A DNA stretch of 64,000 nucleotides from an uncultured Planctomycetaceae bacterium (lineage in GTDB: Bacteria > Planctomycetota > Planctomycetia > Pirellulales > Pirellulaceae), in assembly GCA_963758085.1 (NCBI GenBank), contig CAVWUB010000004.1:334259-398258 (forward strand), written 5' to 3'. Numbering within the stretch: position 1 is the stretch's first letter; each line of letters begins with the position of its first letter. Shown in pieces: positions 62,602 to 64,000 of the stretch. The translations under genes were made by a program, and so were the position numbers. The notes under the pieces are model-generated. The model did not search any database and was not told the origin of the DNA. It saw nothing but the letters and a program-made list of their open reading frames with translations.

Positions 62602-62629
62602 TTGACGAGCCCTGGCCAGACGTGATACT
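62602..62629 (+). promoter_or_regulatory. Putative sigma70-type promoter for tRNA-Ala
   Basis: TTGACG (62602-62607), a 16-nt spacer, then GATACT preceded by TG (62623-62629), about 70 nt upstream of the tRNA. Confidence 0.4.
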
Positions 62630-62698: not shown

Positions 62699-62774
<76 letters not shown>

Positions 62775-62775
62775 C

Positions 62776-62800
62776 AAGCCACCTTCGGGTGGCTTTTTTT
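62776..62800 (+). terminator. Rho-independent terminator after tRNA-Ala
   Basis: AAGCCACC-TTCG-GGTGGCTT followed by TTTTTTT. Confidence 0.8.
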
Positions 62801-62893: not shown

Positions 62894-63358
62894 TCAGTCT
62901 CGCAGGTCGATCTTGCAACAGCCGAAGTCCAGCGACTTGATCACCGCGCGCCCCTTGAGGAAGTCGGCGTTGAGTTGGTAGTAGCTGAACTTCCCTTCTT
63001 TCTGCGTCGTCACCAACTGGGCATGAAATAGCACCCGCAGGTGGTGAGATACGTTCGGCAACTCCAGTTCCAGCATTTCGGCAATGTCCGTCACGCTCAG
63101 CGGACCGGCCTGGAGTAGCCGGACGATCTGCAGACGCACCGGATCGCCGAGCGCCTTCAGGTAGCCTGCGCATCGATCGGCCGCTTGAGTCGATGAACTG
63201 TCGGCCACCCTCTCACCCGCCTTGCGAACGCTGAACCTCGGATCTCCACCGGCCCGAATTATCGCAGCGATCAGCGCGGGTGCAACCGGAGCGCGGCACT
63301 CGCCGAACTGACGCCAGCTAAACTGCCCACTCGTCGCCGTATTCCAGCTAGTTGACAC
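62894..63358 (-). CDS. ArsR/SmtB-family transcriptional regulator
   Basis: The wHTH LKALGDPVRLQIVRLLQAGPLSVTDIAEMLELELPNVSHHLRVL is the ArsR signature. There are Cys residues N-terminal of the HTH (DRCAGYL) and a C-terminal CC pair. Confidence 0.8.
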   Translation of the reverse strand: MSTSWNTATSGQFSWRQFGECRAPVAPALIAAIIRAGGDPRFSVRKAGERVADSSSTQAADRCAGYLKALGDPVRLQIVRLLQAGPLSVTDIAEMLELELPNVSHHLRVLFHAQLVTTQKEGKFSYYQLNADFLKGRAVIKSLDFGCCKIDLRD

Positions 63359-63374
63359 GCGCTGCGGGGCGACG

Positions 63375-63400
63375 TACGCTCAAACGCTCGTTTGAGCGTA
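63375..63400. promoter_or_regulatory. Perfect 12-2-12 palindrome TACGCTCAAACG-CT-CGTTTGAGCGTA, a candidate ArsR-family operator
   Basis: Read directly. It lies 17 nt upstream of the ArsR start codon, in the divergent region shared with the rhodanese gene. 12-2-12 dyads are the classical ArsR/SmtB operator geometry. Confidence 0.55.
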
Positions 63401-63485
63401 GGCTCAGCGAGGACGCGATGAGTTCAAGCCGCAAGCAACTCATGATCGATCCTTATCACTGCCCTTTCACTTGAGGAACGACAAC

Positions 63486-64000
63486 ATGAAGCAGATTTTC
63501 TTGGTCGCTATCGCGCTCTGGACCGGCTCCGCAAGTCTGGGGCGGGCCGAAATTGGAATTATCTCTCCGGCTGAAGCCAAACGTCTCATGGAGGTGTCCG
63601 ATCCAGCGAAGCGTCCGATCGTACTCGATACGCGCGGTGGCTATAAGGATTATTTTCGCGGGCATTTGCCACTGGCTCATCACCTCAACTTCGATACCCT
63701 CCGCGGCACCGATCGCGGTGTTCCTGTGCAATACCTTCCCGACGACCTCACCCGGGCGCTGTTGGTCCGTGCGGGTGTGGACCGCGACCGGACGCATTTG
63801 ATTTATGCCACCGGTGATCGACTACCCAACGATGAGGTGCTCAGCGCCAGCATGGTGGCCTATGTGCTGGAAAAGTTTGGCGTACAGGATATTCGCATCA
63901 TTGACGGCGGGCTGCCGCAGTGGGAGCGTGCGAACCTGCCCGTCGTGCAGGAATACTTTGGCAACCCGCCGGGAAAACTGCCTGAGCAAGATCATCCAGC
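63486..64000 (+). CDS. Secreted rhodanese-domain sulfurtransferase (3' end outside the window)
   Basis: A signal peptide MKQIFLVAIALWTGSASLGRA. PIVLDTRGGYKDYFRGHLPLAHHLNF is a rhodanese-like fold start. The ORF runs off the window end and is therefore absent from the ORF track. Confidence 0.6.
   Translation, partial: MKQIFLVAIALWTGSASLGRAEIGIISPAEAKRLMEVSDPAKRPIVLDTRGGYKDYFRGHLPLAHHLNFDTLRGTDRGVPVQYLPDDLTRALLVRAGVDRDRTHLIYATGDRLPNDEVLSASMVAYVLEKFGVQDIRIIDGGLPQWERANLPVVQEYFGNPPGKLPEQDHP

Follow-up and report, generated by a model that had tools for sequence, protein, structure and literature searches.

A short divergent locus in an uncultured planctomycete raises two questions: whether the perfect inverted repeat between its regulator gene and its target gene is the operator of that regulator, and what signal the regulator would sense. 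The locus closes a 64-kb stretch of contig CAVWUB010000004.1 (64,000 nt; hereafter the window, whose numbering is used throughout) and is a divergent regulator-target pair from a Pirellulales-like planctomycete, in which a minus-strand gene of the ArsR family (arsR) faces away from a plus-strand rhodanese gene. An initial annotation had read it as a BigR/CstR-type divergon responsive to sulfide or persulfide. Comparative evidence from related loci establishes the operator, the promoter architecture, the content of the target operon, and the signature of the regulator family. Judged by this comparison, the operator-like dyad that the initial annotation had linked to both genes is very probably the cognate operator of the window ArsR, with the rhodanese gene as its direct target.

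The dyad itself, TACGCTCAAACG-CT-CGTTTGAGCGTA at positions 63375-63400, is present as first described, with 12-nt arms that are 100% complementary and a 2-nt spacer (Table 1). When the dyad pattern was searched for in the window, this site was the sole match even with 3 mismatches allowed (0 of 100 shuffles), and a search of the whole window for perfect palindromes with arms of at least 12 nt and spacers of 0 to 6 nt likewise found this site alone (0 in 20 shuffles), so the dyad is not expected by chance. Such 12-2-12 geometry is typical of SmtB/CzrA operators. It is exact in the window, as had been claimed; the perfect symmetry, however, is particular to the window dyad, and what is conserved family-wide is a TCAAAC-N4-GTTTGA core with outer AC/GT bases.

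Conservation of the operator was assessed with a 26-nt matrix in 80 related planctomycete loci and in shuffled DNA, counting matches of at least 12 bits. This gave 53 matches in 46 of the 80 loci and 1 match in shuffled DNA; the consensus is AACACTCAAACGATCGTTTGAGTGTT, and the window dyad scores 36.2 bits with the family position weight matrix. The core with its outer bases recurs upstream of arsR in the relatives, its half-sites 10 bp apart center to center. Its placement varies: the operator can lie between arsR and a divergent gene, just past the arsR stop codon and before a cobW-like gene, before cobW operons that face away from arsR, or, in L047, ~50 nt before a rhodanese gene that does not adjoin the arsR promoter.

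A TTGACA hexamer (with at most 1 mismatch) stands exactly 17 nt from the operator edge at 24 of 54 sites, and at 22 of the 29 sites that are upstream of arsR. At operator sites this hexamer always reads away from arsR, to the divergent gene or (in L056) to a DUF1559 gene, and the spacer is conserved in length but not in sequence. Because the hexamer is exactly 17 nt away, the outer six bases of the dyad would form the -10 element of the rhodanese promoter; judged by eye, these bases, nACnnT (TACGCT in the window), have preserved the A and T that mark a -10 element. The dyad therefore sits in a proposed sigma-70-type promoter of the rhodanese gene and not, as initially placed, just upstream of arsR. 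Both promoters discussed here, that of the rhodanese gene and that of arsR, were recovered from cross-locus conservation only.

The distance between dyad and regulator gene had been given as 17 nt within a 128-nt divergent region, a geometry that was misread because of the choice of start codon. The longest arsR open reading frame (ORF) begins at GTG 63358 and has 154 aa. A search of 5.8 billion proteins returned 212 ArsR relatives, of which those carrying names are all from Planctomycetota (Pirellulaceae, Pirellula), and most of the best 120 of these 212 are 100 to 108 aa long. When aligned with the window as protein or as DNA, these homologs have their ATG where the window has GTG 63208, and the 50 codons upstream of that GTG lack protein-level conservation among the homologs. 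From the homolog lengths and the shared ATG column, we infer that arsR starts at GTG 63208 and encodes a 104-aa product, the 154-aa reading being too long, and that the gene spans 62894-63208 with an intergenic region of 277 nt (63209-63485). This start places the dyad closer to the rhodanese ATG (85 nt) than to the arsR start (166 nt).

Upstream of GTG 63208, at a distance of ~50 nt, is a putative separate promoter for arsR; it is ~90 nt away from the dyad and does not overlap it. Of 79 related loci, 30 have the pattern TTG(C/T)nn-16/17-GATAAT at a comparable position, whereas the shuffled controls have none. With a separate promoter ~90 nt from the dyad, arsR is probably not autoregulated by occlusion, and the regulator would probably be made constitutively. 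Just beyond the arsR stop codon, convergent with its 3' end, there is a tRNA-Ala(GGC) gene (62699-62772), flanked by a promoter-like TTGACG-16-GATACT (62602-62629) and a stem-loop/T-run terminator (62776-62795).

The plus-strand ORF that begins at ATG 63486 matches the rhodanese family (PF00581) and runs past the end of the window. Its N terminus holds a signal-peptide-like segment, MKQIFLVAIALWTGSASLGRA|EIG, judged by eye, in keeping with the divergent secreted rhodanese of the initial annotation. The window covers the N-terminal, noncatalytic rhodanese domain; the catalytic domain and a downstream PiT gene lie beyond it, and the content past the window end was deduced from the orthologous loci L082, L084, and L104, the last of which is the closest relative (its ArsR is ~91% identical to the window ArsR). 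Full-length orthologs have 303 to 306 aa and match PF00581 twice, in tandem. Their loop, YCGTSREGS, contains a 6-residue catalytic loop, CGTSRE, of the TST/MST type, as in tandem-domain sulfurtransferases, and their best relatives in the PDB are Thermus thermophilus rhodanese (1UAR) and Escherichia coli SseA (1URH). A reading of the protein as an Acr2/Cdc25-type arsenate reductase was rejected, since the loop has 6 and not 7 residues and the nearest relatives are sulfurtransferases. In the predicted rhodanese leader (63414-63447) there is an imperfect hairpin, ATGAGTT ... AACTCAT with a 12-nt loop, which is probably insignificant because it is not conserved in L104.

In the orthologous loci the rhodanese gene is followed by a gene for a 318- to 320-aa PHO4/PiT permease and then by unrelated genes, where the operon ends. 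The nearest curated family of the permease is the CysP sulfate permease, at a score well below the cut-off. The downstream persulfide dioxygenase (PDO) that the initial annotation had proposed to look for is absent from the operon of these loci, which consists of rhodanese and PHO4/PiT genes only. The rhodanese is 71 to 100% identical among the best 120 of more than 2,500 matches, which include entries labeled Gemmata, Urbifossiella, and Anatilimnocola. The rhodanese-PiT pair is kept across planctomycete orders at >70% protein identity, even without an adjacent arsR or operator.

Within the 80 related loci, the rhodanese-PiT pair is operator linked in 13, in three different arrangements. The commonest operator-controlled operon of the ArsR subfamily is a divergent one that encodes a DUF1559 pseudopilin-like protein, a PhyH dioxygenase, an MFS protein, and a fusion of an ArsI/CadI VOC domain with a degenerate methyltransferase. 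With 138 bits the VOC domain exceeds the family cut-off of 116, its sole relatives in the PDB are ArsI C-As lyases, and its CCYA motif is conserved; the fused methyltransferase-like domain seems to lack the S-adenosylmethionine-binding motif I. The commonest downstream gene encodes a CobW-like GTPase with a CFCC (CxCC) motif and is sometimes accompanied by a gene for a PhnD-like binding protein. In L073, a YgaP-like rhodanese gene follows DUF1559 in an operator-controlled operon. No efflux ATPase or CDF was seen among the neighbors of the ArsR subfamily. Further recurrent neighbors, which look unrelated by eye, include genes for an ABC ATPase, kinases, an RND pump, a phosphatase, PSCyt/DUF1501 proteins, and PQQ-like proteins.

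A scan of metagenomes for the promoter and operator together returned 23 loci. Eleven belong to this system (10 with the DUF1559 operon and 1, L104, with the rhodanese-PiT operon), and the other 12 are unrelated: 6 are at TetR-type regulator genes (by eye), 5 are inside ApbE-like coding sequences, and 1 is elsewhere. No new target genes emerged from these 23 loci. At the cobW-like genes a second promoter architecture was seen, in which a TTGAnn -35 element directly precedes the operator, the left part of the operator forms the 17-nt spacer, and a (T/G/C)AGAAT -10 element replaces part of the right operator arm, for which reason the operators at cobW sites are less symmetric.

We next consider the regulator. 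The minus-strand ORF (62894-63358) matches the ArsR family (PF01022, E = 2.8e-13; NF033788, 86.1 bits against a cut-off of 55) and also PF12840 (HTH_20), in agreement with the initial assignment. These matches and an AlphaFold2 (AF2) model place the protein in the ArsR/SmtB superfamily with an HTH_5-type winged helix. The cysteines that had been noted on either side of the winged helix-turn-helix, in DRCAGYL and GCCK, are both there and correspond to C13, C97, and C98 of the 104-aa protein (C63, C147, and C148 in the 154-aa numbering). All three are invariant: an alpha1 Cys three residues before YLKALGDP and a C-terminal LDFGCC(K/R)hDL are found in all 120 of the best 120 homologs. The spacing from the alpha1 Cys to GCC is 84 residues in 117 of 119 homologs, and 104 of 119 have no further Cys between the two. 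A profile search of 1.84 billion cluster representatives found all three Cys in 86 of the best 150 (clusters at 50% identity), and the one more distant cluster that carries an organism name is from Planctomycetaceae. The signature thus extends well beyond the clade of the window ArsR and marks, by these profile matches, a large uncharacterized ArsR subfamily. In the literature library searched, there was no paper on this ArsR subfamily or on planctomycete ArsR regulons.

The AF2 monomer model of the window ArsR (mean predicted local distance difference test [pLDDT] 81.5) is of high confidence from alpha1 through alpha4 and in the wing, and it places C13 in alpha1. Its top Foldseek matches are CzrA, SrnR, HlyU, SmtB, CadC, and AfArsR, with all ArsR structures about equal. 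In the model, residues 80 to 104 (window 62897-62971) form a short helix and then a beta hairpin whose turn holds FGCC, whereas a typical ArsR/SmtB protein has a long alpha5 dimerization helix in this place; the modeled segment is of low confidence, and its folding may require dimerization or a bound ligand. After the CC pair the chain reads KIDLRD-stop, 6 residues with no Cys.

Persulfide-sensing ArsR proteins (cluster 4 of a sequence similarity network) form one class that is defined by a Cys pair in alpha2 and alpha5 (PMC10054925). The alpha2 Cys (RLxILC) is absent from the window ArsR: hhalign puts YgaV Cys31 on Arg80 (154-aa numbering), the family consensus reads RLQIVRAL, and the position that holds this Cys in YgaV, HlyU, and BigR is Arg or Lys in the window subfamily. 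With the NCBIfam BigR model (NF040642) the protein reaches 48.6 bits, where the cut-off is 155. Alignments to YgaV, HlyU, and BigR end before the C-terminal CC, which by counting falls ~2 residues later than the alpha5 Cys. Membership in the BigR type, as initially proposed, is not borne out by the alpha2 position or by the model score. What the window ArsR shares with BigR, SqrR, YgaV, and HlyU is the ArsR fold, a predicted repressor logic, a putative thiol site composed of a Cys in the N-terminal half and a C-terminal Cys, and association with a rhodanese, as in E. coli ygaV-ygaP. It differs from them in having three invariant Cys instead of two and no alpha2 Cys, in an operon that lacks PDO, blh, sqr, and tauE, and in a sequence nearer to CadC, NmtR, and SmtB. 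The CsoR superfamily has an all-helical fold, and the window protein matches HTH_5 and HTH_20 but no CsoR-type family. Since CstR is described as a member of the CsoR superfamily in PMC8643695, the proposed CstR type also falls away; the likeness to CstR is limited to the idea of a Cys-based repressor tied to sulfurtransferase genes.

In profile scores the window ArsR is nearest to CadC, NmtR, SmtB, and CzrA, with CadC the best among solved structures (57.7 bits). The alpha3 CXC motif of type 1/CadC proteins is missing, the subfamily reading L-S-V-S-D-L where CadC reads L-C-V-C-D-I, and so is the alpha5 metal site of SmtB, CzrA, and NmtR, as LNxEFLKxRSVAKSLDFGCC contains no His. CmtR, the Cd/Pb sensor of Mycobacterium tuberculosis, relies on three Cys, one of them in its C-terminal tail. 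Likeness to sensors of the CmtR, CadC, and SmtB types lies in the number of Cys (CmtR), in the sequence (CadC), and in the link between a CadI-type VOC gene and ArsR-type regulators; unlike them, the window ArsR has no alpha3N CXC (it has SVS), no alpha5 His/Asp/Glu site, and no alpha4 Cys.

Four As(III) site types and one MAs(III)-selective variant have been described for ArsR; every described As(III)-responsive type uses three Cys, two of them vicinal, at positions that evolved independently several times (PMC11868830). The As(III) ligands are Cys95, Cys96, and Cys102 in Acidithiobacillus ferrooxidans ArsR (AfArsR; type 2 site), and SpArsR senses MAs(III) with the CC pair alone (PMC11868830). 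C97 and C98 of the window ArsR fall on AfArsR Cys95 and Cys96, FGCCK lying over ENCCH of the AfArsR structure 6J05 in phmmer and profile alignments. The two proteins are alike in the ArsR/SmtB fold, the vicinal C-terminal Cys-Cys, the total of three Cys, and the lack of CXC in alpha3, and SpArsR also carries a vicinal Cys-Cys at the C-terminal end of the dimerization region. Unlike in AfArsR, the third Cys is C13 in alpha1 and does not lie six residues past the pair, the chain ends 6 residues after CC, and the C-terminal segment is predicted, with low confidence, to be a short helix plus hairpin and not a long alpha5. In contrast to both AfArsR and SpArsR, the window-type targets are not ars genes, and the operator lies in the target promoter and not in an autoregulated arsR promoter. 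By its sequence the window ArsR belongs to no described ArsR site type.

A second ArsR circuit was found at planctomycete sulfide operons, whose gene order is ygaP-like rhodanese, thioredoxin, PDO-rhodanese fusion, TauE, SQR, DsrE, and SoxA/TsdA cytochrome. The ArsR that heads these operons has 104 to 105 aa and carries Cys in alpha1 (AAECLRVLAHP), after alpha4 (LMQRCGFL), and in alpha5 (ILNCVEDRF), and it has neither an alpha2 Cys nor a GCC tail; its operator, TTGACA-N2-TCGGAA-N2/3-TTCCGA, lies between the -35 and -10 elements. It shares with the window ArsR the phylum, the size, the fold, the alpha1 Cys, the lack of an alpha2 Cys, and an operator embedded in a TTGACA promoter. It differs (L110-L115) in its Cys pattern, in the absence of a GCC tail, in the sequence and placement of its operator, and in heading a ygaP-(trx)-pdo/rhodanese-tauE-sqr-dsrE-soxA/tsdA operon. 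On its Cys pattern, this regulator looks like an undescribed type of persulfide sensor with an alpha1/alpha5 instead of an alpha2/alpha5 Cys pair.

In L034, L035, and L045, the TCGGAA-N2/3-TTCCGA operator stands before ygaP near a GCC-type arsR-cobW pair, so that both ArsR circuits coexist in the same genomes. As the ygaP-trx-pdo unit has its own promoter and the other operator, it is not under the GCC-type ArsR. The proximity of arsR-cobW to ygaP-trx-pdo/rhodanese in these three loci was accordingly discarded as support for persulfide sensing: the unit carries the operator of the other ArsR. Control of the sulfide genes (sqr-pdo) by a window-type ArsR, which a sulfide-responsive divergon might have implied, is not supported, given the different ArsR and operator at planctomycete sqr-pdo, and the best-looking evidence for persulfide sensing is removed. 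The presence of this circuit suggests that the persulfide signal already has its own sensor in planctomycetes.

These comparisons are best explained by a model in which arsR would encode a 104-aa homodimeric winged-helix repressor that, in its reduced, ligand-free form, would bind the 26-bp dyad; the bound dimer would occlude RNA polymerase at the -10/+1 region of the rhodanese-PiT operon. Ligation or modification of the three-Cys site would free the operator of repressor, and the operon would then yield a secreted two-domain rhodanese sulfurtransferase and a PiT-family (CysP-like) anion permease. To this explanation as a whole we assign a probability of about 0.5; its repressor-operator-promoter part, which draws on the cross-locus conservation, we regard as quite likely. 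The ligand that we tentatively favor, at slightly less than even odds, is a thiophilic metalloid or metal of the As(III)/organoarsenical or Cd type, because of the three invariant Cys with a vicinal pair in the AfArsR position, and because of the ancestry among metal sensors, the ArsI-like plus CobW-like regulon, and the separate sulfide circuit. The initial annotation had itself allowed that the Cys pattern might point to a metal-sensing ArsR instead, and a thiophilic metal or metalloid has at least equal support from the Cys signature and from the ArsI/CadI-type and CobW-type genes of the wider regulon. With a metalloid as the ligand, one may speculate that cells under thiol-consuming stress would obtain sulfur through the rhodanese-permease module. 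It is possible, and we suggest it with some reserve, that the proteins combining an alpha1 Cys with GCC represent a new, independently evolved ArsR site type, either for As(III)/organoarsenicals or for sulfane sulfur bound by three Cys.

Several observations weigh against the favored explanation. DNA binding, repression, release, and the response to ligand are predictions from the comparative data. The target operon in the window is a sulfur-transfer module and fits a sulfur signal more directly; no arsB/acr3, arsC, arsM, or arsH was seen among the recurrent neighbors in the 80 loci. The equivalent of AfArsR Cys102 is absent, the third invariant Cys being in alpha1, and the C-terminal 25 residues of the AF2 model, a monomer model, have low confidence (pLDDT ~58 to 64). 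At the level of DNA, the -10 hexamer TACGCT is weak, a consensus promoter scan of the intergenic region called no promoter, and the arsR promoter region differs in L104, where it is shorter, so that the arsR promoter assignment is tentative. Finally, the rhodanese-PiT pair stands without the operator in Gemmata sp. (L108:6001-7901) and Anatilimnocola floriformis (L109:6001-7919); the regulation would therefore be lineage specific, a widespread module having been recruited in some lineages only.

The same repressor, operator, and promoter could instead answer to sulfane sulfur (persulfide or polysulfide), the main alternative, which we consider rather unlikely but take seriously. C13 and C97/C98 would then form a di- to tetrasulfide bridge, the regulator would be a functional analogue and not a homologue of BigR, SqrR, and YgaV, and the operon induced by the signal would encode a periplasmic sulfurtransferase together with a permease for sulfite, thiosulfate, or sulfate. 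The direct target, a rhodanese with a CysP-like PiT protein, fits this well, as does the YgaP-like rhodanese in the operator-controlled operon of L073, and E. coli YgaV-YgaP is an ArsR-rhodanese pair in the persulfide cluster (PMC10054925). The sqr-pdo ArsR, too, has alpha1 and alpha5 Cys without an alpha2 Cys, which makes an alpha1 partner plausible in Planctomycetota, and for Synechocystis, PMC6620896 cites a report of As(III)-sulfide crosstalk in the regulation of an sqr operon under ArsR control. However, the missing alpha2 Cys and a BigR score far under the cut-off argue the other way, and the Cys pair used by the persulfide sensors described in PMC10054925 does not explain why a vicinal pair and a third Cys should be invariant. 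The planctomycete sqr-pdo-tauE genes are under a different ArsR and operator even where both regulators coexist, and the other genes of the regulon (ArsI/CadI-methyltransferase, PhyH, MFS, DUF1559, CobW, and PhnD-like) have no known role in sulfide detoxification. A ligand other than a soft metal or metalloid or sulfane sulfur, or no ligand at all, we regard as doubtful.

The frequency of the CFCC CobW-like GTPase, the commonest operator-controlled neighbor, could also be read as the mark of a Zur-like regulator, in which the protein would bind DNA when its Cys3 (plus Asp94) site holds Zn(II) or another metal, and metal starvation would switch on genes for a CobW/COG0523-type chaperone, a metal-phosphate PiT transporter, and further acquisition functions. 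Metal-phosphate complexes are substrates of PiT transporters, and COG0523 genes typically belong to the zinc starvation response. We nevertheless judge such a metal corepressor improbable: to our knowledge, the characterized ArsR/SmtB proteins lose DNA affinity on binding ligand and none acts as a metal-dependent corepressor, neither the rhodanese nor ArsI/CadI serves zinc acquisition, and the PiT protein is nearer to CysP than to PitA. Even less probable, and in our estimate very much so, is that another regulator binds the dyad, or that it is a chance or structural palindrome, with the ArsR acting elsewhere. The same pattern does occur at proteobacterial TetR-type genes (6 loci), so that the motif is not exclusive to the window-type ArsR. 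In planctomycetes, however, it tracks the ArsR subfamily whatever the target, in 46 of 80 loci and in 11 of 23 metagenome matches; there is no TetR gene nearby in the window, and chance is excluded by the shuffles.

Those TetR-type loci (L086, L091, L093, L096, L101, and L103, by eye) carry TTGACA-N18-AC-NN-TCAAAC-N4-GTTTGA and are on high-GC, apparently proteobacterial metagenome contigs, with a divergent ABC-transporter-like ORF in L086, L093, L096, and L101. There, a nearly identical dyad seems to serve regulators of an unrelated family.

Table 1. Coordinates of features at the arsR-rhodanese locus and at related loci (window positions unless a locus is named)
Feature	Position	Strand	Basis or remark
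arsR coding sequence, 104 aa plus stop, start GTG 63208	62894..63208	-	PF01022/PF12840, NF033788; homolog-based start
Upstream part of the longest arsR ORF; most likely noncoding, holding the arsR leader and promoter	63209..63358	-	Unconserved at the protein level
Putative arsR promoter: -35 TTGCAC (63285..63280), 16-nt spacer, -10 GATAAT (63263..63258)	63258..63285	-	Cross-locus conservation
Candidate -35 hexamer TTGACA of the rhodanese-PiT promoter	63352..63357	+	17-nt spacing in 24/54 operator sites
Candidate -10 element, first six bases of the dyad (TACGCT)	63375-63380	+	17-nt spacing from TTGACA; transcription start expected near the dyad center
Operator (very probably), perfect 12-2-12 dyad TACGCTCAAACG-CT-CGTTTGAGCGTA	63375..63400		Uniqueness, shuffles, position weight matrix, conservation in relatives
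Shine-Dalgarno-like GAGGAA, 7 nt before the rhodanese ATG	63473..63478	+	Read from sequence; same cacttGAGGAAc in L104
Rhodanese gene, 5' part, 171 codons	63486..64000	+	PF00581; full-length orthologs
Signal-peptide-like segment of the rhodanese	63486-63548	+	Read by eye
ArsI/CadI VOC operon in relatives	~0.2-5 kb upstream of arsR in L005, L007, L010, L016, L032, L049, L050, L058		
cobW-type operator architecture	L018:6390-6445; arsR-cobW gaps of L010, L027, L032, L046, L074		Sequence reading
Sulfide-operon ArsR/operator	L110:3875-4236, L112:3498-3865, L113:3380-3744; also L034:7580-7601, L035:3101, L045:4982		

ArsR sensors are a standard example of ligand sites that evolved repeatedly on one scaffold, and this locus exposes a large planctomycete ArsR subfamily with a different and strictly conserved Cys arrangement; if it is indeed a new site type, the subfamily would comprise at least 86 clusters at 50% identity. 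Beyond the subfamily itself, the locus provides a sharply defined operator, its promoter logic, and a small set of target operons, and since one protein and one defined 26-bp operator are involved, ligand specificity is directly testable. The rhodanese-PiT pair, a module of no known function that retains >70% identity across Planctomycetota, is here given a regulator. In addition, two distinct ArsR circuits with operators of their own are present in planctomycetes, one of them at a sulfide oxidation operon. Were the ligand of the window ArsR a metalloid, the locus would form a direct transcriptional link from metalloid stress to sulfur acquisition. If the reading as a new ArsR site type is true, Pirellula-like planctomycetes would wire thiol-reactive stress to a periplasmic sulfurtransferase and a sulfur-oxyanion permease, an ArsI-like operon, and a CobW-like GTPase, with one operator serving two promoter architectures in that wiring.

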